A stretch of 64,000 nt of DNA from Thermoanaerobaculia bacterium (GTDB lineage: Bacteria; Acidobacteriota; Thermoanaerobaculia; Gp7-AA8). Positions 1-64,000 of the stretch are shown in pieces. The notes under the pieces are model-generated. The model did no database searches and had not been told where the DNA came from. It saw only the letters and a program-made list of their open reading frames with translations. Position numbers and translations under genes: made by a program. The stretch is from the NCBI GenBank assembly GCA_035630815.1, contig DASQJY010000044.1:5249-69248 (forward strand). The letters are read 5' to 3'. Position 1 is the first letter of the stretch; every line of letters starts with the position of its first letter.

Positions 1-942
1 GTGGCGCTTGTCGTAGCCGGCGACGACGCGCGTTACGCGGCGCTGGCGATCGCGATCCTGTCGCTCAACTACGACCCGTACGTCTACATCGCGGCGCTGG
101 TGGTGTTGTTCGGCCGGCGCCTGAAGTGGTCCCTCCTGCTCGCCGCCATGCCTGTCGCCGTCTGGGCCATCACGCTGCGCGTCCTCAGCGGAAACACCAT
201 GACCACGCACCTGCGGAAGTGGTTCGTGCTGCCGGTGCTCTCCGGCTGGGTGGACTTTTTCATGGCCCCGCTCGATCGGATCCTGCTTCCCTTCGTCGCC
301 ACGCACGTAGGGCTGCAGGTAGCGTTTCACCAGCTCATCGCCATGATCTACTGGCCGCTGCTCGCGGTCTGCGTCTTCCTGCTCGTGAAACTGCGGCCGA
401 AACTGGAGCTGAGGGTCGTCGCGCTGCTGCCTCTGTTCTTCGTCCTCGAGCAGCTCGCCGCCGCCGCCTTCGACTGGGAGCTCAACCCGCGCCGCGCCAT
501 CCCCGCGGTGCTCGCGTTCGCGTTCGCCTACCTCTATGCAATGGATCGCGAGTGGCAACGCTGGCGCATCGCCTTCATCGCCTTGTTCCTGATGAGCGGC
601 CTGCTGGCGATGAGCGACACGCTGTTCGGCAAGCCCGCCATCGCCTACCTGCACACCGGGCAGGCCATCCGTCACGACGTGCACGACATCGTCCGCGCGG
701 AGCGGATGCGTCTCGACACGGACTCACTCCCCCGCCTCACCCGCGATGAACCGATCACCTGGCGTGACGTCGACCGCGCCAAGGCTCAGAATCTCGGCAC
801 GTTCGCCGTCACGCAGACGATGGGCGTGCTGCTGCTGTTTGGATTGTTCTGGCTGACGGCGCGGGCGGAACTGCTGCCGCGCTGGCTGCCATGGGCGGCA
901 GTGGCGATGTGGGCGGTGAGCCTCGTGCGCTTCGTCTCGTAG
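1..942 (+). CDS. integral membrane protein, probably 5'-truncated by the window edge
   Basis: The ORF runs from base 1. Translation is dominated by hydrophobic helices (LLLAAMPVAVWAITL, WPLLAVCVFLLV, LLLFGLFWL). No family recognised. Confidence 0.45.
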   Translation: MALVVAGDDARYAALAIAILSLNYDPYVYIAALVVLFGRRLKWSLLLAAMPVAVWAITLRVLSGNTMTTHLRKWFVLPVLSGWVDFFMAPLDRILLPFVATHVGLQVAFHQLIAMIYWPLLAVCVFLLVKLRPKLELRVVALLPLFFVLEQLAAAAFDWELNPRRAIPAVLAFAFAYLYAMDREWQRWRIAFIALFLMSGLLAMSDTLFGKPAIAYLHTGQAIRHDVHDIVRAERMRLDTDSLPRLTRDEPITWRDVDRAKAQNLGTFAVTQTMGVLLLFGLFWLTARAELLPRWLPWAAVAMWAVSLVRFVS

Positions 943-952
943 GCGCCCGAAC

Positions 953-1029
953 GGTGTCGGGTGTCAGGTATCTGGGGTGTCTCGTCCGGGCGACAATCCC
1001 CAGACATCTGATACCCGACACCTGACACC
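953..1029. repeat. heptamer-array hairpin element, GGTGTCA family
   Basis: Left arm is GGTGTCG GGTGTCA GGTATCT GGGGTGTCT. After a loop, the right arm CCAGACATCTGATACCCGACACCTGACACC is its reverse complement. Lies between convergent genes (stops at 942 and 1083). Confidence 0.9.
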
Positions 1030-1082
1030 ACCCCCCCACCGCCGGATCCCTCGCTACACTCGGGATGACGCGTCTGCGCGCG

Positions 1083-1658
1083 TCAGAACTCCGGTGCGAT
1101 CAGCCCCAGGTTGTTGTCGCGCCGCTTGTAGATCACCGACACCTGGTCGGTGTCGATGTCGCGGAAGACGATGAACTCGTTCTTGGAGTCGTCGAGGTGC
1201 AGCGCGGCCTGCTCGATCGACATCGGGCGGATGGCGATGTTGTTCGTCTTGATGATGCGCGGCATCCCCTCGTTCGCCTCGTCGGTCAGGCGGCCCGGCT
1301 CGAGCACCTGCACGGCCCACTCGGTGATGTCGGGAGTGAAGGCCGTCTCGCCGTTGCCGTGGCGGTGATGGTCGCGGATCTTCTTGCGGTTCTTCTGCGC
1401 CTGGCGCTTCACGTGGTCGAGCGCGGAATTGGCGGCGTCCTGCATCGACTCGTCGGAGGTCTGCACGCTCTTGACGTCGTGCTCCTTGCCGGTGATCAGG
1501 ATCTCGCAGATGTTGCGGTACTTCTCGACCTGCAGCACCACGCGCACGTCGATCACGTCGTCGAACAGCTTCTCCTGGATCTTGGCGAGCTTGGTCTCGA
1601 GCATCGCGCGGAGGTCGGCTGGGATGTCGTAGTTGCGGCCGGAAATCTCGGTTGCCAT
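1083..1658 (-). CDS. hpf: ribosome hibernation promoting factor, long form
   Basis: From MATEISGRNYDIP there is an S30AE-type N-domain plus the long-HPF C-terminal domain (RIIKTNNIAIRPMSIEQAALHL..FIVFRD). Directly downstream of rpoN. Start placed at internal ATG 1658. Confidence 0.9.
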   Translation of the reverse strand: MATEISGRNYDIPADLRAMLETKLAKIQEKLFDDVIDVRVVLQVEKYRNICEILITGKEHDVKSVQTSDESMQDAANSALDHVKRQAQKNRKKIRDHHRHGNGETAFTPDITEWAVQVLEPGRLTDEANEGMPRIIKTNNIAIRPMSIEQAALHLDDSKNEFIVFRDIDTDQVSVIYKRRDNNLGLIAPEF

Positions 1659-15206: not shown

Positions 15207-15212
15207 TGGTTT

Positions 15213-15344
15213 CTCTACCGGACGAACAGAAGCAGTCAGAGCGGTAGCTGCCGCCACCGCACTCCATATGAATTCGGCGCGGGATTGATATGGAGTGCGG
15301 TAACGCTAGTTACCGCTCTGACTGCCTCTGTTCGTCCGGTAGAG
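15213..15344. repeat. long imperfect inverted repeat, GGAGTGCGGTAAC family (inner-facing cores)
   Basis: Arms are CTCTACCGGACGAACAGAAGCAGTCAGAGCGGTAGCTGCCGCCACCGCACTCCATAT and ATATGGAGTGCGGTAACGCTAGTTACCGCTCTGACTGCCTCTGTTCGTCCGGTAGAG. The right arm supplies the last 12 codons and the stop of the GT4 gene. Confidence 0.9.
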
Positions 15345-16298
15345 AAGGGCACGCTGCTCGTACAGGTCGACGGTCTCTCTCGCGACCCGGTCCCAGTCCC
15401 ACTGCATAACGCGGGCGTAGTTGTGCGCGCCCATCGCTGCGACATCCTGCGCGCTCGTGGCGCGCTGCATGGCGTCGAGCAGCGCATCCCCTTCGTAAAG
15501 AAAGGCGCCACCCTCGTCGAGCATCCCGCCGATGCAGCCGCGGCGGACCGCGATGCACGGCTTCGCGAACGACATGGCCAGGATCGCGGCGCCCGAGGTG
15601 AAGCCGTGCCGATACGGGAGCACGACCGCGTCGCAGGCGTTCATGTAGAGCTGCACGCGCTCGTCGGGGACCGCGCCGGGCGCGAAGGTGATGCGCGTGT
15701 TGCCACTCGTGCGGCGTTGGAGCTCGTGCAGGAGCGAGAAATCCGGAACGCTGCCGGCCAGCACGAGATGCGCGTTGCCGCCGAGGCGTTCGAAGGCATC
15801 CAGGAGCTGCTCGACGCCCTTGTACCTGCGGATCCAGCCGAAGAGGAGGAACACGAACGCCCCGTCCGGAACGCCGAGGGTCCGCCGCGCATCGTCTCGC
15901 GTGACGCGGTTCTCGTAATGATCGGTGTAGCGGCCGTGCGGGATGGTGATCGCCTTCTTCGCGAACCGCCCGAGCTCGCGCCGCCCTTCATCGCAGTGGA
16001 GGATCAGCGCGTGAGCGAGACGCAGCGTGACGGCGGTGATGAGCGCGTCCCGCAGTGGGCGCGGGTTGTCGTGGCGCCGCAGGTCGTGCACGGTCCAGAC
16101 GATCCTCACGCGGGTGAGACGCGCACGCACGAGCATCCCGAGGTAGCGCAGGACCGAAGACGCGGCGGTATGGACGTTGTGCAGATGCAGCACGTCGGGG
16201 CGGCTGTCGACGAGCTCGATGCCCGCACGCCGGAGCGCGCCGGCGAGCAGGGTCTCGTAGGGATTGAACTTCCAGCGCGAGACGAACCGCACGCGCAT
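15306..16298 (-). CDS. glycosyltransferase family 4 (GT-B)
   Basis: MRVRFVSRWKFNPYE start overlaps the priA stop (ATGA). The C-terminal half has the GT1/GT4 layout (FLLFGWIRRYKGV...VLPYRHGFTSGAAILAMSFAKPCI). Confidence 0.8.
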   Translation of the reverse strand: MRVRFVSRWKFNPYETLLAGALRRAGIELVDSRPDVLHLHNVHTAASSVLRYLGMLVRARLTRVRIVWTVHDLRRHDNPRPLRDALITAVTLRLAHALILHCDEGRRELGRFAKKAITIPHGRYTDHYENRVTRDDARRTLGVPDGAFVFLLFGWIRRYKGVEQLLDAFERLGGNAHLVLAGSVPDFSLLHELQRRTSGNTRITFAPGAVPDERVQLYMNACDAVVLPYRHGFTSGAAILAMSFAKPCIAVRRGCIGGMLDEGGAFLYEGDALLDAMQRATSAQDVAAMGAHNYARVMQWDWDRVARETVDLYEQRALLYRTNRGSQSGN

Positions 16299-55340: not shown

Positions 55341-58300
55341 TCAGCGCAGCGTGACCCGCGCTTCCTGACCTTCCGCCGCCGCGACCATCCCTTCCCACCT
55401 GCCGCCGTTCGGCCCTGCCGCGCGCGCGGTGAAGTTGCCGGAAGGGACGCCGTCGATGACGGCGAACCCGTTGATCACCGGCCATTCCTGCTGGAGCGGT
55501 CCGCGGCTGACGGAGCGGAACGGTTGTCCCTCGGCGTCGAGCAGCATGACGCTCGCGACCGCGCCCGTTCCGGTGAGCTCCGGGATCTCGATCGTCACTC
55601 GCCCGGCGCGCGGCAGCATGACCGGCACCGGCTGCCCCGGAACGGCGATGCCGAGGGCGATCGTGGCCGCGCCGTCCGCTCCGACGAGCAGCCGGAACGA
55701 TCCGGCCGGTGCGCCGGGAACCCGCGTCCGGCCGCCCTCGCCCGTAGTCACGGTCTGCGCGAAGACGAGCTGGCCGGCGGGATCCAGGAGTGCGACGCCG
55801 ATGCGCGCCGGCGGCATGCCGGCGCTGCTGGTCACGTCGAGCAGCAGCCCCTGTTCCGGCTCCATCATGAGGCTCAGGCCGTCGGCGCTGGTGTCGTCCG
55901 AGGGCAGCTCGAGCGGCAGCGTGGCCCGCGCATAGCCGTCCTTCGTGCCGGTGAGGCGGTAGCTGCCGCGGTCCAGGTTCGTCAGCTCGAACGCGCCGTA
56001 GCTGTCGGTGGTCACGCGTGGCGAGAGCACACTCGAGCCGCCGGCCACCGGCTCGGCGATCACGGTCACGCCGGCCAGCGGAGAGCGGGTGACGCCGTCG
56101 ACGACGGTGCCGGACGCGCGGGCGCTCGGCAGGTCGACGTCGATGGTCTGGTCACCGCCGAGGGTGACGGCGCGTTCGTGGTGCAGCCCCGATTGCGCGA
56201 CGTTGACCGCGAGGCGGTGCTCCCCGGCCGTCAGCCCCTCGATGCGGAACGCGCCGCCACCGTCGGTGACCGTGGAGCCGGAGGAGTCGACGCCGACACC
56301 GCTCACCTCCACCGTGGCGTTCGCGACCGGTTGTCCGTGCCTGCGCACGCGGCCGCTCAGCGTCACGCCGCCGCCGAACTCGAGATCGAGTTGCGCCGGC
56401 GATCCTTCACTCACACTCACCGACTTCTGGGCCTGACGCCCGTTCGGCAGCCGCGCGGTGACGGTCCAGTCGCCGGCATGCACGCCTTCGATGCGATAGG
56501 CCCCCTGCCCGTCGGCGTTTCCTTCCCGCAGGGCGTCGAGGTTGTCCATCGGACGCTTGGTAGCCATGATCTGCAACTGCGACATCGACTGCAGCGGCAG
56601 CCCGAGGATGCGCCCGCTGATGACTCCCGCGCCCTGCTGCAGGCGCAGCTCGACGCCGTCGACGGCACGGTCGCTGATCTGCACTTCCTGCCGTGCGGTG
56701 CCGTAGCCTTCTTTCTGCGCCGCGACGCTGTAGCGGCCCGCCCCCAGCCCCGTAAAGCGAAACGCTCCGTCGCTGCCGCTGACATCCTCCTCTGCCATCC
56801 CGGGTCCGGAGGTCAGTAGATTCACCGGTGTGCCGGCGAGCGGGCGTCCGCTGCCGTCGACGACGCGTCCCGAGACCGCGAAGCCCTCGGCCAGGCGGAG
56901 GTCGACGCGGTTGTCGCCGCTGCGCACCTCGATCTCCCGCACCGCGGGCTGATAACCCGGCTGAGTGGCGATGACGGTCTGCGCGCCGAGGGGCACTCCT
57001 TCCATCCGGAAGCGTCCGTCGCCGTCGGTCTGCGAAGCGCCGGCGACTTCGAGATCGAGCAGGCGGTCGGGCATGCGGTTGCTGTGGCGCAGCGTCACGC
57101 GCGCCGCGATCGCCGGCTGGCCGTTCGGCATCGACACCGTTCCCTCGAGCGCCGCGCCGCGATGCAACGTGAGGTCGACGTCCTCGATATTCCGCCCTTC
57201 GCCGACCTCGAGGACGACCGGTTCGCCGGAGACGAACCCTTTCGCCGACGCGCTCACCGCCATCTTTCCCGGCTCGAGATCCTGCAGCACGTACGTCCCC
57301 GCGGCGTCGGTGTCGGCGACCGAGCCGGAGAGTCCGGCCGGCAGCGCCGCATCGACGGGACGGATCGCGACGACCGCACCGGGGACCGGCTCGCCCTGCT
57401 CTGTCTTCACCCTGCCGCTGACGCGCGCGGCCGGCTCGAGCACGAGCTGCACCGGTTGCGACGGCGGCATCTCGAGCTGCGGCAGCGTGGCCGCGACGTA
57501 GCCGCTGAGGCGGGCGATCACGTCGATGGTCTCGCCGTGAGCCAGTCCGTCCAGGCTGAACCGTCCGTTCGCTTCGCTCTTCGTCGAACGGATTTCCTGC
57601 CCCCCCGCCAAAAGCTCGCGGGCTTCGGCGCGAACGCCGGTGGCGCTCGGCGGGAAGGCCGACACCGTCGCGCCGGTGAGCGGCTTGCCGCGGCGATCGG
57701 TGACCGTTCCGGTGAGCGCGAGTCCCCGCTCCAGCGCGATCTCGCCGAGGTCGTTCGCCGCGCCGCTCTCGATGGCGATGTCCTTGACCGTTCGCCGGAC
57801 GAACCCGTCCGCCTTCGCCGTCAGCTCGAAGCGCCCTGCCGGAAGATGCTCGAACCGGAAGCCTCCCTCGGCGTCGGAGAACGCCTCCAGCGGCTCCTCC
57901 TCAATCTCGTCCTCCGCGCGCAGGAAGCTCGGCAGGCTGTCGCGCGCACTGCTGCGCACGAGCCGGATTTCCGCCGCCGCAACCGGGGCGGCGCGCTCGT
58001 CGACGATCCTGCCGAACGCCCCCATGCCGCTGGTCAGCACCAGCCGCAGGCCCGACTTCACGGCCGCCGGGGCGAGCTTCTCCGCCACCGTCAGCGTGGC
58101 CGGTGCAAAACCGGTCCGCGAGGCGCGCAGCGTATACGCGCGGCGCGGCAGCACCTCGATGCGGAACGTGCCGTCATCGCGGCTCATGGCGCGCGCGGCG
58201 ATTCCCTCGGGGCGCGTACGGAAGCGGAAGAGCGCGTCGGAACTGTACTCGTCGAACTGGATCTCCGCGCCGCCCACCGCTCTGCCGCTGCCGTCCACCA

Positions 58301-59402
58301 CGGCCCCGGCCAGCGTCGCCGTCGGCTGCAGCGCGAACGTCGGCCCGCTCGCGTTCGGCCCCCGCTTCGCCGACGTCTTTTCGCCGCGCGGGAGATGTCC
58401 AGAGGCCGCGGCCCGCAGGTCGCCGCTCGTCTGCGCGGGGCGCGCGAGGACGTACGTACCCTTGGCGTCGCTGCGGACGAACGCCGCCGGATCGTCCGCG
58501 CTCCACACCAATGCTCCCGCGATCGGAGCGCGGGAGTCCGCGTCGAGCACGCGTCCGGTGAAGCGGTCCGGCGCCTCCAGCATGACCGCGAGCGGAGCGC
58601 TGGGCTGCTCCGGCGAGGCGTGCTGCAGTGGCGTGCGCGCGCTCCGTCCGTCGCTCGCGGCGATCGAGACGCGCAGGTCGCTCCTGCAGGGAGCGTAGAT
58701 CGTCGCGCTTCCTTCTTCGTTCGTCGTCGCGAGCAGCACGCTCTCCGTCGAGACGCGTGCACCCGCGACGGCTGAGCCGTTCCCGTCGCGGACAGTGAGC
58801 GGACGCGCGCACGCGGCCTCCGCGCGCAGGTCGATCGAAGATGCGGTAACGCGCGACGCGCGTGCGAACGCGAGCTCGCCGCCGGTGGCCGCGACTTCGA
58901 GGCTCTCCCCCGCGCTGCGCGGCAGCACCACGGTTCCGCTCTCATCGGTCGTTCCGGCACGCGACGCGGCGATCCAGCCGTCCGGGCGCTGCCCCGAGGT
59001 CGGCCACGCCGCGACCCGCACCCCCGCCACCGGCGTGCCGTCCGCGCCGAGCACGCGCACGCGCAACGGCGCGTTGTCCTGCGTGCGCAGCGGCGCGAGC
59101 TCGATCGGCGCGAGCAGCGGCAGCAGCGACGTCTCGGCCGGCACGGCCCCGGTCGCGCGGACGATGACGCGGTACATCCCCGCGTCGGGCGCGGCGAGGC
59201 GGAAACGTCCGCCCGTATCCGTGCTCGCCGACGTCAGGGCCTCGCCATTCTCCGCGACCGGCAGCAGAGCCACCTCCGCTTTCGGCGACGGCTTGCCGCG
59301 CGCGTCGAGCACCCGTCCGCTCACCTCGATCGTGCGGGGAGCGGGCGCCTGGTCGGCGGCGAGCAGAGCGAGTAGCGCGAGGCTCCCGAGGACCATCGGC
59401 AT
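55341..59402 (-). CDS. giant secreted protein made of tandem carboxypeptidase-regulatory-like (prealbumin-fold) domains
   Basis: Signal peptide, then more than ten repeats of the G.V.D..G.P..GA.V......g........TD..G.F....L..G.Y pattern over 1353 aa. Confidence 0.8.
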   Translation of the reverse strand: MPMVLGSLALLALLAADQAPAPRTIEVSGRVLDARGKPSPKAEVALLPVAENGEALTSASTDTGGRFRLAAPDAGMYRVIVRATGAVPAETSLLPLLAPIELAPLRTQDNAPLRVRVLGADGTPVAGVRVAAWPTSGQRPDGWIAASRAGTTDESGTVVLPRSAGESLEVAATGGELAFARASRVTASSIDLRAEAACARPLTVRDGNGSAVAGARVSTESVLLATTNEEGSATIYAPCRSDLRVSIAASDGRSARTPLQHASPEQPSAPLAVMLEAPDRFTGRVLDADSRAPIAGALVWSADDPAAFVRSDAKGTYVLARPAQTSGDLRAAASGHLPRGEKTSAKRGPNASGPTFALQPTATLAGAVVDGSGRAVGGAEIQFDEYSSDALFRFRTRPEGIAARAMSRDDGTFRIEVLPRRAYTLRASRTGFAPATLTVAEKLAPAAVKSGLRLVLTSGMGAFGRIVDERAAPVAAAEIRLVRSSARDSLPSFLRAEDEIEEEPLEAFSDAEGGFRFEHLPAGRFELTAKADGFVRRTVKDIAIESGAANDLGEIALERGLALTGTVTDRRGKPLTGATVSAFPPSATGVRAEARELLAGGQEIRSTKSEANGRFSLDGLAHGETIDVIARLSGYVAATLPQLEMPPSQPVQLVLEPAARVSGRVKTEQGEPVPGAVVAIRPVDAALPAGLSGSVADTDAAGTYVLQDLEPGKMAVSASAKGFVSGEPVVLEVGEGRNIEDVDLTLHRGAALEGTVSMPNGQPAIAARVTLRHSNRMPDRLLDLEVAGASQTDGDGRFRMEGVPLGAQTVIATQPGYQPAVREIEVRSGDNRVDLRLAEGFAVSGRVVDGSGRPLAGTPVNLLTSGPGMAEEDVSGSDGAFRFTGLGAGRYSVAAQKEGYGTARQEVQISDRAVDGVELRLQQGAGVISGRILGLPLQSMSQLQIMATKRPMDNLDALREGNADGQGAYRIEGVHAGDWTVTARLPNGRQAQKSVSVSEGSPAQLDLEFGGGVTLSGRVRRHGQPVANATVEVSGVGVDSSGSTVTDGGGAFRIEGLTAGEHRLAVNVAQSGLHHERAVTLGGDQTIDVDLPSARASGTVVDGVTRSPLAGVTVIAEPVAGGSSVLSPRVTTDSYGAFELTNLDRGSYRLTGTKDGYARATLPLELPSDDTSADGLSLMMEPEQGLLLDVTSSAGMPPARIGVALLDPAGQLVFAQTVTTGEGGRTRVPGAPAGSFRLLVGADGAATIALGIAVPGQPVPVMLPRAGRVTIEIPELTGTGAVASVMLLDAEGQPFRSVSRGPLQQEWPVINGFAVIDGVPSGNFTARAAGPNGGRWEGMVAAAEGQEARVTLR

Positions 59403-60222: not shown

Positions 60223-60414
60223 TCAGCCGCAGCAGGACGCCGCGACGGCAGGCGCACCCTTCTGCGATCCCTGCGGTACACCGCAACCGCATCCCGTTTC
60301 GCCCGCCGCCTTGGCATCCGCATCCCTGACGCAGCAGGCATCCGTTTCCCTCGGGGCCGGACCTCCGCAACACGTCGACGCGGGCTGTTCTGCAACTGCA
60401 TTCAATTCGGTCAT
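60223..60414 (-). CDS. small cysteine-rich protein (CC/CxC motifs), putative metal- or redox-binding
   Basis: 63 aa with 9 Cys: TCCGGPA, DACCVRD, GCGCG and a C-terminal SCCG. Divergent from the ECF sigma gene. Confidence 0.5.
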   Translation of the reverse strand: MTELNAVAEQPASTCCGGPAPRETDACCVRDADAKAAGETGCGCGVPQGSQKGAPAVAASCCG

Positions 60415-60511: not shown

Positions 60512-61111
60512 ATGGAAACGAACCAGACTATCGACGTAGCAATCGACGTAGCAGCCGCGTGGCATGAGCTGGGAGACCGCCTGCGCGTCTACGTCTCGCG
60601 GCGCGTGAACCCCGGCGACGCGGACGACGTGGTGCAGTCCGTCATGGTGAAACTGCTCGAGCGCCGCACCGACATCGGCCCCGGCTCCGTGCGTGCGTGG
60701 CTCTTCGCCGTCACGCGCAACGCGGTCGCCGAGTACTACCGCCAGCGCCGGCCGGACGTCGATCTCGACACGTTCGGCGACGTTCCCGAGCATGACGCCG
60801 CCGATCCCGCCGACCGCATCCTCGGCAGTCTCACCGACTGTCTCGAGCCGATGCTCGGCACGCTCTCCGCCCCCGACGCGGACGTACTGCGCCGCATCGA
60901 CCTGCACGGCGAGGCGCAGACCACCCTCGCCGCCACCCTCGGCATTCCACTGTCGACCGTCAAGTCGCGCATCCAGCGCGCCCGCACGAAGCTCCGCGCC
61001 GCTTTCGACTCCTGCTGCGCGATCGAGCTCGCCCGCAACGGCACCCCGATCGGATTCGAGCGCGGCTCAACGTGTACGCCGTCGTGTACCGCCGAAGAGC
61101 CGCGCTCTTGA
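60512..61111 (+). CDS. ECF-type sigma-70 family factor with Cys-rich C-terminal extension (SigZ-like)
   Basis: Region 2 (DADDVVQSVMVKLLER...WLFAVTRNAVAEYYRQ), region 4 (LATLGIPLSTVKSRIQRARTKL) and the tail DSCCAIEL...CTPSC. Confidence 0.85.
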   Translation: METNQTIDVAIDVAAAWHELGDRLRVYVSRRVNPGDADDVVQSVMVKLLERRTDIGPGSVRAWLFAVTRNAVAEYYRQRRPDVDLDTFGDVPEHDAADPADRILGSLTDCLEPMLGTLSAPDADVLRRIDLHGEAQTTLAATLGIPLSTVKSRIQRARTKLRAAFDSCCAIELARNGTPIGFERGSTCTPSCTAEEPRS

Positions 61112-61120
61112 CCTTGTAGG

Positions 61121-61423
61121 ATGCGCTCCGTGACGTTCGTCCGTGCGCTGCGCCAGCTCGCTTTCATCGAAGGAATCTCCACCCTGGTCCTCTTCGGGAT
61201 CGCGATGCCGCTCAAATACTTCGCCGGCCTGCCCCTCGCGGTGCGCATCGTCGGCTCTGTACATGGAGCCTTGTTCGTCGCCCTCGTGGTGATGCTGCTC
61301 GTGGCCATCCGAAAGGTACCGATCTCCCTCGCGCTGGCCGCTGCCGGAATCGCTGCCGCCGTAGTTCCCGGCGGCCCGTTTCTCCTCGATCGATACCTGG
61401 CGCGCTTCGACGTCGCCGGCTAG
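61121..61423 (+). CDS. DUF3817-type small membrane protein
   Basis: 100 aa. LRQLAFIEGISTLVLFGIAMPLKY..G.P..VRIVGSVHG is the family pattern. Confidence 0.72.
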   Translation: MRSVTFVRALRQLAFIEGISTLVLFGIAMPLKYFAGLPLAVRIVGSVHGALFVALVVMLLVAIRKVPISLALAAAGIAAAVVPGGPFLLDRYLARFDVAG

Positions 61424-61656: not shown

Positions 61657-63009
61657 ATGCCATTCGCGTGGGAGAGGCTGATCGGCTTGATTGCCGAGCG
61701 GAAGATCGTGCCGGTCATCGGACAGGATCTCCTGCAGGTGAAGACGCCTCTCGGCGAAATGGCGCTGTATCGCTTCATCGCGCTGCGCGCGGCGGAACGG
61801 CTCGGACTCGAGCCTCCCCCACCCGATGCCGCGAACCCGCTCCACACAGTCACCACGCAGCATCTCGAGAACCGCGGCGACTGGCAGGAGATCTACTCCA
61901 CGGTCTGCGAGGTGATCGGCGAAACGGAGTCGTTCGAGCCGCCGGCGGCACTCGCTGACCTGGCAGCCATCGAGCCGTTCTCGCTCTTCGTCACCACGAC
62001 CGTCGACCCCCTGCTGCAGCGCACCCTCGACCAAATCCGCTACGGCGGCGAAGACTCCACGCGCGTGCTGGCGTTTACACCCGGCCGCACCAGGGATCTC
62101 CCCGACGCGACCTACGACTCCACCGTGGCCACGGTCTTCCATCTCTTCGGCAGGTACAGCGTCTCTCCCGACTATGCCGTCACCGAGGAAGACACGCTCG
62201 AGTTCATGCACCTCCTGCAGTCGGACGTGAAGCGGCCGCAGAATCTCTTCCGCGAGCTGGCGCAGCGCGACCTGCTCATGCTCGGCAACAGCTTCGACGA
62301 CTGGGTGGGCCGTTTCTTCATCCGCCTGACCAACCAGGAACGGGTGTGGGTGGCCAGGTCGACGCAGAGCCGCTTCGTCGCCGACGAGCGTGTACGCCAC
62401 GACGCAGGCCTGCTGACCTTCCTCCGCCAGAGTCCCTCCATCAAGGTCTATCCCGATGGCAACCCCACCGACTTCGTGGCCGAGCTGCGCCGCCGGTGGG
62501 AGCAGCGCGCGTCCAGGCTGGCGCGCGAGGGAAAAAGCGACCCTGTTCTCGAGATCACGCCCGGTTCGGTCTTCGTCAGCTACGCCAGCGAGGACCGAGC
62601 GTTCGCGAAGGCGATCGCCGACGCACTATCAGCCAGGGGACTGGATGTCTGGTTCGACCGCGACGAGCTCGGGTCGGGCGACGATTTCGGGCGGAAGATC
62701 GAAAGTGCCATCGATCGCTGCGCAGTCTTCGTCCCCGTGATCTCGAAGGCTTGCGGCGATTCGCGGCGTTTCTTCTTCCAGGAATGGCGCGCCGCCATCG
62801 ATGTCGCGAAGAAGGCCAGCTTCACGGCGCGCTTCGTGATGCCGGTGGTCATCGACGACATCGCTTACGATGACGAACGAGTGCCTCGCGAGTTTCGCGG
62901 GGTGCACTGGGAACGCGTTGCTGCCGCAGGCCCGGAGCCGCGGTGGGTGGAGGAAGTGCGGAAGGAAGTGCGGGCCTTCCGGAAGGTGTCGATGGCGGGG
63001 ACGGGATGA
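61657..63009 (+). CDS. fused SIR2-like (SIR2_2-type, divergent) and TIR domain protein
   Basis: The N-domain follows the SIR2_2 layout (IVPVIGQDLL, LFVTTTVDPLL, VFHLFGRYS....AVTEEDTLEF, LLMLGNSFDDW). The C-domain is a TIR (VFVSYASEDRAFAKAIADALSARGLDVWFDRDEL..GDDF...I..AIDRCAVFVPVIS...FFFQEW). Start at ATG 61657, after the repeat element. Confidence 0.72.
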   Translation: MPFAWERLIGLIAERKIVPVIGQDLLQVKTPLGEMALYRFIALRAAERLGLEPPPPDAANPLHTVTTQHLENRGDWQEIYSTVCEVIGETESFEPPAALADLAAIEPFSLFVTTTVDPLLQRTLDQIRYGGEDSTRVLAFTPGRTRDLPDATYDSTVATVFHLFGRYSVSPDYAVTEEDTLEFMHLLQSDVKRPQNLFRELAQRDLLMLGNSFDDWVGRFFIRLTNQERVWVARSTQSRFVADERVRHDAGLLTFLRQSPSIKVYPDGNPTDFVAELRRRWEQRASRLAREGKSDPVLEITPGSVFVSYASEDRAFAKAIADALSARGLDVWFDRDELGSGDDFGRKIESAIDRCAVFVPVISKACGDSRRFFFQEWRAAIDVAKKASFTARFVMPVVIDDIAYDDERVPREFRGVHWERVAAAGPEPRWVEEVRKEVRAFRKVSMAGTG

Positions 63010-64000
63010 AGCCGCAACCGCGCGTCGATTCCGAACATCCCTGGCCAGCGCTCCTCTCCTTCCGCGAAGATGACCAACGCTATTTCGGCGGGCGGAACGA
63101 GGAGGTGGAGGCGCTGTACCGTCGCATCGCGTCCAGCCGCCTGACCCTGCTCTTCGGTCTCTCCGGCCTCGGCAAGTCGTCCCTGCTCCTGGCCGGTCTC
63201 TTTCCGCGGCTCCGCGGCGAGCATTACTTCCCCGTCTACATCCGCCTGCGCTACGGCCGCGACCTGCCGCCGCCCGTCGAGCAGATCAAGACGGAGATTG
63301 CCGCCCAAGCCCGTGACCATGGAGTCGAAGCGCCGGAGCCGCGCGCCGGCGAAACGCTCTGGCAGTACTTTCATCGCCCCGACTCCGACTTCTGGGACGA
63401 CCGCAACTATCCCGCGACCCCGGTGCTGGTGTTCGACCAGTTCGAAGAGCTCTTCACCAGGAGTCGCGAGGTGGCCGGGCAGGCGAACCAGTTCATCGAA
63501 GAGCTGGCCGATCTGGCGGAAGGGGTCGAAGGCAATTACCGGCTGCTGATCGGCATCCGCTCCGACTACCTCGCCCAGCTGCAGGGGATCAGCGACCACG
63601 TGCGCGCGATCTTCGCAAACCGCTACGAGCTTCACCGCATGAGCGGCGCCGCGGCACTGGAGAGCACCCTCACCGCCGGAGGACACCTCCTGGACGAGGA
63701 CGTTGCCCGGCGCATCGTCCGTTTCGTCGCCGGCGCGAAGGAGAGCGGCGACGCGCAGTCCGTGGAGGAACTGCAGGTCGAGCCTGCGCTTCTCAGCCTG
63801 GTCTGCAGCGAGCTGAATGCGACGCGCCTAGAGAAGCACGAGCCGAAGATCACCGCCTCGATGCTCTCCGGGACCAAGGACGAGATCCTCTCGCGGTTCT
63901 ACGAAGCGAGCCTCGCCGACATCTCTCCGGAACTTCGCGTGCTGGTGGAAGACAAGCTCGTGACGCGCGACGGGAAGGCGCGCAATTTCATCTCCGAGCA
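63006..64000 (+). CDS. STAND-class P-loop NTPase (nSTAND-like), 3'-truncated by the window end
   Basis: Absent from the ORF track because no stop falls in the window; I translated it by hand. MKPQPRVDSEHPWPALLSFREDDQRYFGGRNEEVEAL...LLFGLSGLGKSSLLLAGL (Walker A), PVLVFDQFEELF (Walker B) and EPALLSLVCSELN. ATGA overlap with the SIR2-TIR stop. Confidence 0.8.
   Translation, partial: MKPQPRVDSEHPWPALLSFREDDQRYFGGRNEEVEALYRRIASSRLTLLFGLSGLGKSSLLLAGLFPRLRGEHYFPVYIRLRYGRDLPPPVEQIKTEIAAQARDHGVEAPEPRAGETLWQYFHRPDSDFWDDRNYPATPVLVFDQFEELFTRSREVAGQANQFIEELADLAEGVEGNYRLLIGIRSDYLAQLQGISDHVRAIFANRYELHRMSGAAALESTLTAGGHLLDEDVARRIVRFVAGAKESGDAQSVEELQVEPALLSLVCSELNATRLEKHEPKITASMLSGTKDEILSRFYEASLADISPELRVLVEDKLVTRDGKARNFISE

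Follow-up and report, generated by a model that had tools for sequence, protein, structure and literature searches.

We describe a two-gene locus at the end of a 64,000-nucleotide stretch of DNA (hereafter the window) from a Thermoanaerobaculia bacterium of the phylum Acidobacteriota (contig DASQJY010000044.1, positions 5,249 to 69,248). The first gene, open reading frame (ORF) A, encodes an effector-type protein with an N-terminal SIR2-like and a C-terminal TIR domain, and the second, ORF B, encodes an NTPase of the nSTAND1 clade of STAND proteins (Table 1). The two genes are a real, widespread, strongly co-conserved and translationally coupled unit. It is probable that they form an NLR-like conflict module, in which a transmembrane (TM) nSTAND1 sensor would control an effector composed of a pseudo-enzymatic SIR2-like domain and a TIR NADase, with a likely role in anti-phage defence or abortive infection.

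The effector family is large: 750 cluster representatives at 50% identity were recovered in an exhaustive search at E≤1e-30, nearly all of them 440-480 amino acids (aa) long and matched end to end. In a scan of one genome per species, 432 or more genomes contained relatives. These are distributed over Acidobacteriota, Pseudomonadota, Nitrospirota, Verrucomicrobiota, Gemmatimonadota, Planctomycetota and Cyanobacteria; Methylococcales, Nitrosomonas, Nitrospira, Thermodesulfobacteriota, Binatia and Synechococcus are also among the carriers. The initial annotation, made from the letters of the window alone, had raised the question of whether the pair is co-conserved elsewhere, and it is. Of 81 fetched loci, 79 have, as the next gene downstream, an nSTAND1 gene in the same orientation, and in the other two the contig ends at the effector gene. 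The start and stop codons overlap by 4 nucleotides (nt) in 53 of these 79 loci, as they do in the window, where the ATGA overlap had been recognized at the outset. ORF B was absent from the ORF list used then, which omitted frames running off the window end. Pairwise identities of the effector and the NTPase module are correlated (Mantel r=0.87), a value reached by 0 of 999 permutations. When all ORFs of at least 100 aa in the 81 loci were clustered against one another, no third conserved gene emerged. Cultured carriers include Nitrosomonas sp. Nm84, Synechococcus sp. WH 5701 and Paraburkholderia caribensis MBA4, in which the pair resides on a 2.5-Mb replicon filed as a plasmid (NZ_CP012748.1, 377-381 kb). 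A search of 50,697 phage records gave no match, and plasmids gave just one.

The reading of ORF A in the initial annotation, both its limits and its motifs, agrees with the translation, which contains VIGQDL, FVTTTVD, FHLFG, VFVSYASEDR and FFFQEW. All close homologues share an MPFAW start, which supports the start at 61657. An identical protein (P0001) originates from a Thermoanaerobaculia (Acidobacteriota) metagenome-assembled genome (MAG).

The TIR domain had been called clear, and Pfam TIR_2 matches residues 305-418 with E=1.7e-23 (83.9 bits, cut-off 28). Sequence matches in the Protein Data Bank (PDB) include PdTIR, AbTIR and the TIR-APAZ protein of SPARTA, and the same three are the nearest TIR domains by profile. 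Little or no variation is seen at F306, S308, Y309, D313, E376 and W377. E376, the glutamate of FFFQEW that was first put forward as a catalytic candidate, is Glu in 197 of 197 ungapped family sequences, and the adjacent W377 is invariant. In a profile alignment over the whole domain, with a single 1-residue gap, E376 lies opposite Glu77 of SPARTA TIR-APAZ, which we take, after Koopal et al. 2022, to be the catalytic glutamate. In the AlphaFold2 (AF2) model E376 is located four residues into helix αC (372-386), after F/Y372, in a [W/F]xxxE arrangement. The TIR active site is predicted to be intact, with E376 as the catalytic glutamate and NAD+ cleavage as the putative reaction. A local alignment to PdTIR paired W377 with the Trp of the WxxxE motif, which would make the catalytic Glu non-conserved; it was rejected because it needs a 7-residue gap and stops there, whereas the SPARTA alignment spans the domain.

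The fold of the N-terminal domain is that of SIR2, because Foldseek matched the AF2 model of ORF A (mean predicted local distance difference test score, pLDDT, 85) to the defence-type SIR2 proteins ThsA, KomC (Kongming HAM-SIR2), EfAvs5 SIR2-STAND, DSR2 and SIR2/HerA, all with probability 1.0. Over the whole length, the best structural match is ThsA (7uxt, 8btp, 6lhx); its SIR2 and SLOG domains superpose on the SIR2-like and TIR domains of ORF A over ∼450 columns, and the N-terminal family profile matches ThsA at E=0.003. The SIR2_2 layout proposed in the initial annotation stands as regards the fold, and Pfam SIR2_2 (PF13289) is matched in most homologues; the window protein itself scores 22.0 bits, under the cut-off of 24.5.

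The catalytic residues of this domain appear to have been lost. In the profile alignment to ThsA, the family motif 'tttfD' is opposite 'TTNYD' and 'fhLlG' is opposite 'YKMHG'. T115 thus occupies the position of ThsA N112, in line with the first observation that TTVD replaces TNYD, and among 198 sequences this position holds T165/S20/C8/A3/I1/G1 and never Asn. A histidine of the HxxG motif had been thought to be kept, which turned out to be an error of register: ThsA H152, in KMHG, is opposite F164, a position with F150/L43/M4/Y1, and H162 lies two residues upstream. Position 162, without an equivalent in ThsA, is His in 176 sequences (89%), Gln in 17, and another residue in 5. The degenerate glycine motif VIGQDL was correctly read. 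The canonical GAGxS NAD-binding loop is reduced to G[PQ][DE]LL throughout the family (VPVIGQDLL in the window), and G22 is the sole conserved Gly. N112 and H152 of ThsA are needed for NADase activity, and both ThsA and the animal protein SIRanc are inactive once either residue is mutated (10.1101/2024.09.18.613514). Having lost both canonical catalytic residues and the GAGxS loop, the SIR2-like domain is most likely a non-catalytic pseudo-enzyme. The suggestion that one polypeptide carries both effector types does not hold in this form, the losses being shared across the 198 members. G165, E182, G210 and W216 are invariant, and the strong constraint on the domain points to a conserved non-catalytic role.

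ORF B had been translated by hand, and its nSTAND-type features were confirmed. The translation carries FREDDQRYFGGRNEEVEAL, GLSGLGKSS, VLVFDQFEE and EPALLSLVCSELN, the frame is open to the window end, and Pfam nSTAND1 matches from residue 12 (E=9e-31, 108 bits, cut-off 27.1). All 43 full-length partner NTPases match nSTAND1 and range from ∼640 to ∼2000 aa in length. S53, G54, G56, K57 and S59 of Walker A are invariant among them, as are D144, Q145, F146, E147 and E148 of Walker B (DQFEE). AF2 modelled the 331-aa fragment with a pLDDT of 90 as an AAA+/ORC-Cdc6-like fold. Foldseek returned ORC/Cdc6 and generic AAA+ proteins at a TM-score of ∼0.5, which is uninformative beyond the fold class, and no solved STAND was among the top 50 matches. 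Homologues found with the fragment were at most 77% identical and mostly short proteins.

The partner NTPases appear to be membrane proteins. Among partners of at least 520 aa (n=71), 68 have one strongly hydrophobic, uncharged segment of ∼21 aa at approximately residues 425-480, directly after the NTPase module. The initial annotation missed it because the window ends too early. The 15 residues before the segment contain on average 6.3 Lys/Arg, compared to 3.0 after it. By the positive-inside rule, the Arg/Lys-rich N-terminal side would place the NTPase in the cytosol and the variable domain outside the cytoplasm, and the C-terminal sensor is accordingly predicted to be extracytoplasmic. The orthologous locus L001 (effector 89% and NTPase 85% identical) encodes a 1374-aa NTPase with a TM segment followed by WD40 β-propellers (Table 1). 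WD40/PD40-type β-propellers form the C-terminus in 20 of 43 partners. Other partners carry a Phage_lysozyme, Ribosomal_L12_C or FGE-sulfatase domain after the TM segment, and the C-termini of the remainder contain no recognisable domain.

These features suggest how the module might work. The product of the second gene would be both sensor and switch, composed of a cytosolic nSTAND1 module, a single TM helix, and a variable extracytoplasmic domain (a WD40/PD40 β-propeller in the window lineage; FGE-sulfatase, lysozyme-like and other domains elsewhere). A ligand binding to the variable domain would license NTP-dependent oligomerisation of the cytosolic nSTAND1 modules. The effector, co-produced in stoichiometric amounts, would then be recruited to and clustered on the activated NTPase, probably via the pseudo-SIR2 domain, which may serve as a docking or oligomerisation scaffold. 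Clustering could bring about TIR-TIR assembly and NAD+ cleavage, and the ensuing NAD+ depletion would cause growth arrest or death. The clustering step is supported by the helical filaments or assemblies formed by Avs5 and by the SIR2 domains of ThsA and KomC (PDB entry titles). In this scheme we infer the interaction between the two proteins, the NADase activity, the topology, the trigger and the defence role.

A more specific version of the scheme is tentative. It sees the pair as an 'outside-in' bacterial NLR. A membrane-spanning STAND receptor would detect, at the cell surface or in the periplasm, ligands that stem from an invader or from damage (for example tail or ejection proteins of phages, injected toxins, or fragments of the cell wall), and would relay the signal across the membrane through NTP-driven oligomerisation. 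The SIR2 domain, no longer catalytic, would be kept purely as a filament or scaffold on which TIR domains assemble into an active NADase. Such logic would parallel signalling from animal Toll-like receptors (TLRs) to TIR domains, in which the signal travels inward from an extracellular sensor made of repeats through a TM helix to a cytosolic TIR, as well as the link of animal SIR2_2 proteins to TIRAP: SIRanc/FAM118B, of the SIR2_2 type, acts with TIRAP in TLR signalling (10.1101/2024.09.18.613514). Apaf-1 and caspase-9 offer a second functional analogy, a WD40-STAND sensor recruiting a separately encoded effector. Both likenesses are functional analogies only and imply no homology of the pathways, and in contrast to Apaf-1 and TLR signalling, no CARD/Death or EAD adaptor was detected here with Pfam. 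Periplasmic sensor domains in STAND conflict systems have been raised as a possibility for targets of diversity-generating retroelements (PMC10907252).

The initial annotation regarded the architecture as not belonging to a named system. This is correct for the libraries searched. PADLOC-DB v2 gave partial TIR-domain matches alone for ORF A (SPARTA, SAVED-TIR, ThsB, retron-TIR) and no match below E=0.03 for ORF B, including none to Avs or NLR models. No NCBIfam model reached its cut-off (Thoeris, 21 bits against 220). Since the matches were limited to parts of the TIR domain, with nothing for the NTPase, membership in Thoeris, Avs, SPARTA and CBASS-TIR was rejected. The general kind, an nSTAND1 protein with an effector in trans, is already known from tables. 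Kaur, Iyer, Burroughs & Aravind 2021 (eLife 10:e70394; PMC8195603), whose source data defined nSTAND1, list counter-invader operons of the form 'TIR+DrHyd-> nSTAND1(+TM)+BetaPropeller' in the Figure 2 source data, along with 'TIR-> nSTAND1+FGS' and 'Pkinase+TIR+DrHyd+TIR-> nSTAND1...'. There, nSTAND1 is named once in the main text, and the operons are tabulated and neither discussed nor tested (PMC8195603). These operons share with the present module the NTPase clade, the placement of a TIR-containing effector gene just 5' of the NTPase gene, TM segments with β-propeller or FGS C-termini, and phyla including Verrucomicrobia, Planctomycetes and Acidobacteria; the same gene order was seen in 79 of 81 loci here, with the TM segment in 68 of 71 partners. 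Their effectors differ in combining TIR with DrHyd, whereas here an N-terminal SIR2-like domain is joined to a C-terminal TIR. Neither 'SIR2+TIR' nor 'TIR+SIR2' occurs in any of the 26 supplementary files of that study (PMC8195603), and our literature search found no papers under 'SIR2-TIR' or 'TIR-SIR2'. A 2026 survey that covers 589 STAND clades is centred on fused effectors and soluble sensors, and its main text mentions neither SIR2 nor in-trans effectors (10.64898/2026.01.04.697583). In the searched literature we found no description of an effector variant that joins SIR2-like and TIR domains, of its status as a pseudo-enzyme or of its tight pairing with a TM-nSTAND1.

Well-studied systems resemble the module in part. 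In Avs5/SIR2-STAND (EfAvs5; PDB 9jap, 9nc9) and other Avs/bNACHT proteins, a STAND NTPase with a variable sensor likewise controls an NAD+-targeting effector, and the SIR2 domain of Avs5 structurally matches the N-terminal domain of ORF A. The Avs effector is N-terminally fused in a soluble protein and its SIR2 is active. Here, in contrast, the effector is a separate polypeptide with a degenerate SIR2 and a TIR as the likely enzyme, and the nSTAND1 protein has a TM segment; the NTPase module of ORF B begins at residue 12, ahead of which there is no Avs-type fused effector. Thoeris (SIR2-SLOG ThsA with TIR ThsB) also has SIR2 and TIR superfamilies in one locus. In the present module, unlike Thoeris, the SIR2-like and TIR domains are fused, there is no SLOG or Macro sensor, the SIR2 catalytic residues are lost and the partner is a STAND protein; ThsB profiles match ORF A at E≥1e-3 over ∼55 residues alone. 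SPARTA (TIR-APAZ with a prokaryotic Argonaute) has the nearest TIR by profile, with the catalytic Glu aligned. Its TIR is activated through sensor-driven oligomerisation and depletes NAD+. Unlike SPARTA, the present module has no APAZ or Argonaute, and its sensor is an NTPase with protein-type repeats.

Several points weigh against the proposed membrane sensor-effector module. The topology is read from hydropathy and charge bias. The window stops at NTPase residue 331, and a TM segment and sensor are attributed to the window copy from L001 and the family. The flanks of the loci are heterogeneous and mostly housekeeping, with scattered defence-type neighbours. Conservation leaves room for a remodelled SIR2 site, H162 being 89% conserved. 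Pfam found no adaptor domain on either protein, EAD-specific profiles not having been searched as such. Finally, a segment of 20-22 aa that follows Walker B and precedes a conserved R-E-D motif (consensus RPPAALKARLDxxPExxxxFxFxRHxYK) is missing from the window NTPase and present in 41 of 41 aligned relatives and in the L001 orthologue. Repeated 'EG' codons flank the junction, which suggests deletion between short direct repeats. The window copy could be impaired by this unique in-frame deletion.

One alternative is that the pair is not antiviral and acts as a TM signalling or cell-death switch that responds to signals from the envelope or from outside the cell, for instance interbacterial toxins, predation, kin/non-kin contact or peptidoglycan damage. 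The predicted outside sensors, including a lysozyme-like domain in Synechococcus WH 5701 and PD40/BamB-like propellers, are compatible with this, as are the housekeeping flanks, the dearth of matches in phage and plasmid records, and the association that Kaur et al. draw between such systems and aggregated or multicellular lifestyles. However, the patchy spread across phyla, the multiple and tandem copies in single MAGs, the hypervariable sensors and the swapping of effectors at a fixed position are hallmarks of conflict systems of the immune type, and phage components do pass through the periplasm. We consider this alternative unlikely.

It is likewise unlikely that the window copy, irrespective of the family at large, is a remnant in decay. 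The deletion, and the repeated palindromic element that abuts the locus, could be taken as signs of decay, but both frames are intact as far as the window reaches, Walker A and B, E376 and all other invariant residues are present, the base composition at third codon positions (GC3) is typical of coding sequence, and AF2 models the NTPase fragment confidently.

A signalling function is quite unlikely. In this reading the activated TIR would make a second messenger derived from ADP-ribose, to be sensed by the pseudo-SIR2 domain or by another effector whose gene is unlinked or only occasionally linked. Bacterial TIRs in Thoeris make such signals. The superposition of ORF A on the SIR2 and SLOG domains of ThsA, with a SIR2 plus Rossmannoid layout, is in keeping with this model, and a SLATT_3/DUF4231 membrane-effector gene precedes the SIR2-like-TIR gene in one variant locus (below). 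Yet the 81 loci contain neither a conserved third gene nor a SLATT relative, a dead SIR2 cannot serve as the downstream NADase, and the nearest TIRs by profile are NAD+ hydrolases. A dual NADase, with the SIR2-like site also consuming NAD+ by way of a non-canonical H162, is improbable: the fold and its invariant motifs are well kept and H162 would point to the side of the β-strand on which the canonical His position lies, but the Asn, the His and the full glycine loop are missing from every member, 11% of members have Gln, Tyr or another residue instead of H162 (LYLFG in L083, for instance), and ThsA and SIRanc do not tolerate the loss of either catalytic residue.

Should the proposed sensor-effector module be correct, a large candidate immune module, with ∼750 clusters at 50% identity in hundreds of species and at least seven phyla, would be added to those in the defence-system libraries searched. 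Bacterial NLR-like immunity would also extend to the extracytoplasmic space; to our knowledge, every experimentally studied Avs/bNACHT system senses cytosolic phage proteins. In addition, a SIR2 domain kept structurally beside an active TIR would inform on how SIR2/TIR assemblies are built and regulated.

Table 1. Positions of features in the window and in related loci (L001, L023, L043, L057, L067).
Feature	Position	Strand	Basis or remark
ORF A, 450-aa cytosolic effector with SIR2-like and TIR domains, stop included	61657..63009	+	translation
SIR2-like domain (SIR2_2/SIRim-type), N-terminal, residues ∼1-295	61657..62541	+	predicted catalytically inactive
Codon T115, site of SIR2 catalytic Asn (ThsA N112)	61999..62001	+	hidden Markov model (HMM) alignment to ThsA
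Codon H162, two residues upstream of F164	62140-62142	+	family alignment
Codon F164, site of SIR2 catalytic His (ThsA H152)	62146..62148	+	HMM alignment to ThsA
TIR domain, C-terminal, residues ∼304-418	62566..62910	+	Pfam TIR_2, PDB sequence matches
Codon E376, predicted TIR catalytic glutamate	62782..62784	+	conservation, SPARTA alignment, model
ATGA stop/start overlap of ORF A and ORF B, translational coupling	63006..63009	+	sequence
ORF B, nSTAND1 STAND NTPase, 331 codons from its start to the window end, truncated there	63006..64000	+	Pfam nSTAND1
Walker A GLSGLGKSS, ORF B residues 51-59	63156..63182	+	invariant positions in partners
Walker B VLVFDQFEE, ORF B residues 140-148	63423..63449	+	invariant positions in partners
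Site of in-frame ∼20-22 aa deletion, LAEG|VEGNY, ORF B residues 174/175	63519..63536	+	unique to window copy
Palindromic element, 54-nt arms, 56-nt loop	61446..61609	.	upstream context; membership in system not shown
DUF3817 gene	61121-61423		just upstream of palindrome
L001 NTPase module	residues 12-428		
L001 TM segment	residues 435-455		
L001 β-propellers (WD40)	residues ∼690-1130		
Phage_lysozyme domain after TM segment, Synechococcus sp. WH 5701	L067:9350-11320		
Ribosomal L7/L12 C-terminal domain (Ribosomal_L12_C) after TM segment	L023:9332-11284		
FGE-sulfatase after TM segment	L043:9353-11617		
FGE-sulfatase after TM segment, Nitrosomonas Nm84	L057:9350-11569		

Several loci depart from the simple two-gene arrangement. 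In a Holophagales MAG (L046:2373-14341), an apparently frameshifted NTPase gene, two SIR2-like-TIR genes and a second NTPase gene are arranged in tandem, in this order. Three separate loci are present in this MAG, and three in Thermoanaerobaculia MAG SMAG_U11420; such multiple and tandem loci represent a paralogue expansion typical of NLR-like genes. A gene for a two-TM effector of the SLATT_3/DUF4231 type lies directly upstream of the SIR2-like-TIR gene at L083:319-4095 and L084:114-3890, which are one gammaproteobacterial MAG locus recovered twice. Its TIR protein has an E-value of 4e-106 against the family HMM, and the arrangement may represent a variant of three genes that includes a membrane effector. 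The module is split at L087:3516-8791 into three genes: one for a shortened SIR2_2+TIR_2 protein (355 aa), one for an nSTAND1 protein (417 aa) and, overlapping, one for an 846-aa protein, which starts with the end of the NTPase module and continues into the TM segment. Short or interrupted NTPase ORFs also occur in L047, L015, L071 and L073.

A scan of 109 flanking proteins with PADLOC and Pfam produced scattered singleton matches. Occasional neighbours include a ThsB-like TIR and, in several unrelated genomes, a Patatin-like phospholipase paired with TPR-S (Tetratricopeptide Repeats-Sensor), which adjoins the module at L064:4614-7803 and L067:4405-7708 and in L033, L066, L072 and L077. This pair may constitute a separate conflict system located close by. 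A protein of ∼630 aa with no Pfam match recurs in nine loci (e.g. L020:5868-7790 and L042:5905-7782). Downstream of the L001 module (L001:16233-21188) are a LodA-like L-lysine ε-oxidase gene and a gene for an 821-aa TIR-Roc-COR-TIR protein, a ROCO-type GTPase with two TIR domains.

In the window, the locus lies right after a hairpin element and a DUF3817 gene, as first described. The palindrome is predicted to be very stable (RNA fold z=-10.7). A related palindrome at 15211-15346, with 68-nt arms and no loop, has an arm sequence of ∼39 nt in common with it, with 3 mismatches. The element was not found in the 81 related loci, and an Rfam scan returned isrG only, below threshold (28 bits against 100). 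It may be a repeat of the window genome resembling miniature inverted-repeat transposable elements or repetitive extragenic palindromes. The genes further upstream look ordinary and encode, besides DUF3817, a glycosyltransferase, an aminotransferase, a CarboxypepD_reg repeat protein and a sigma factor of the extracytoplasmic function (ECF) type. The sigma-70 gene (60530-61111, + strand) is divergent to a 63-aa Cys-rich ORF with CC, CC, CGCG and CC motifs (60223-60414, - strand), and the sigma factor itself has a Cys-rich C-terminus (CCAIE...CTPSC); together they may be a metal- or redox-sensing regulator. The CarboxypepD_reg protein (55341-59402, - strand) is 1353 aa long, looks secreted and contains at least 11 repeats. 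A similar gene, encoding 1360 aa, is found immediately upstream of the module in L001, and the intervening genes differ.

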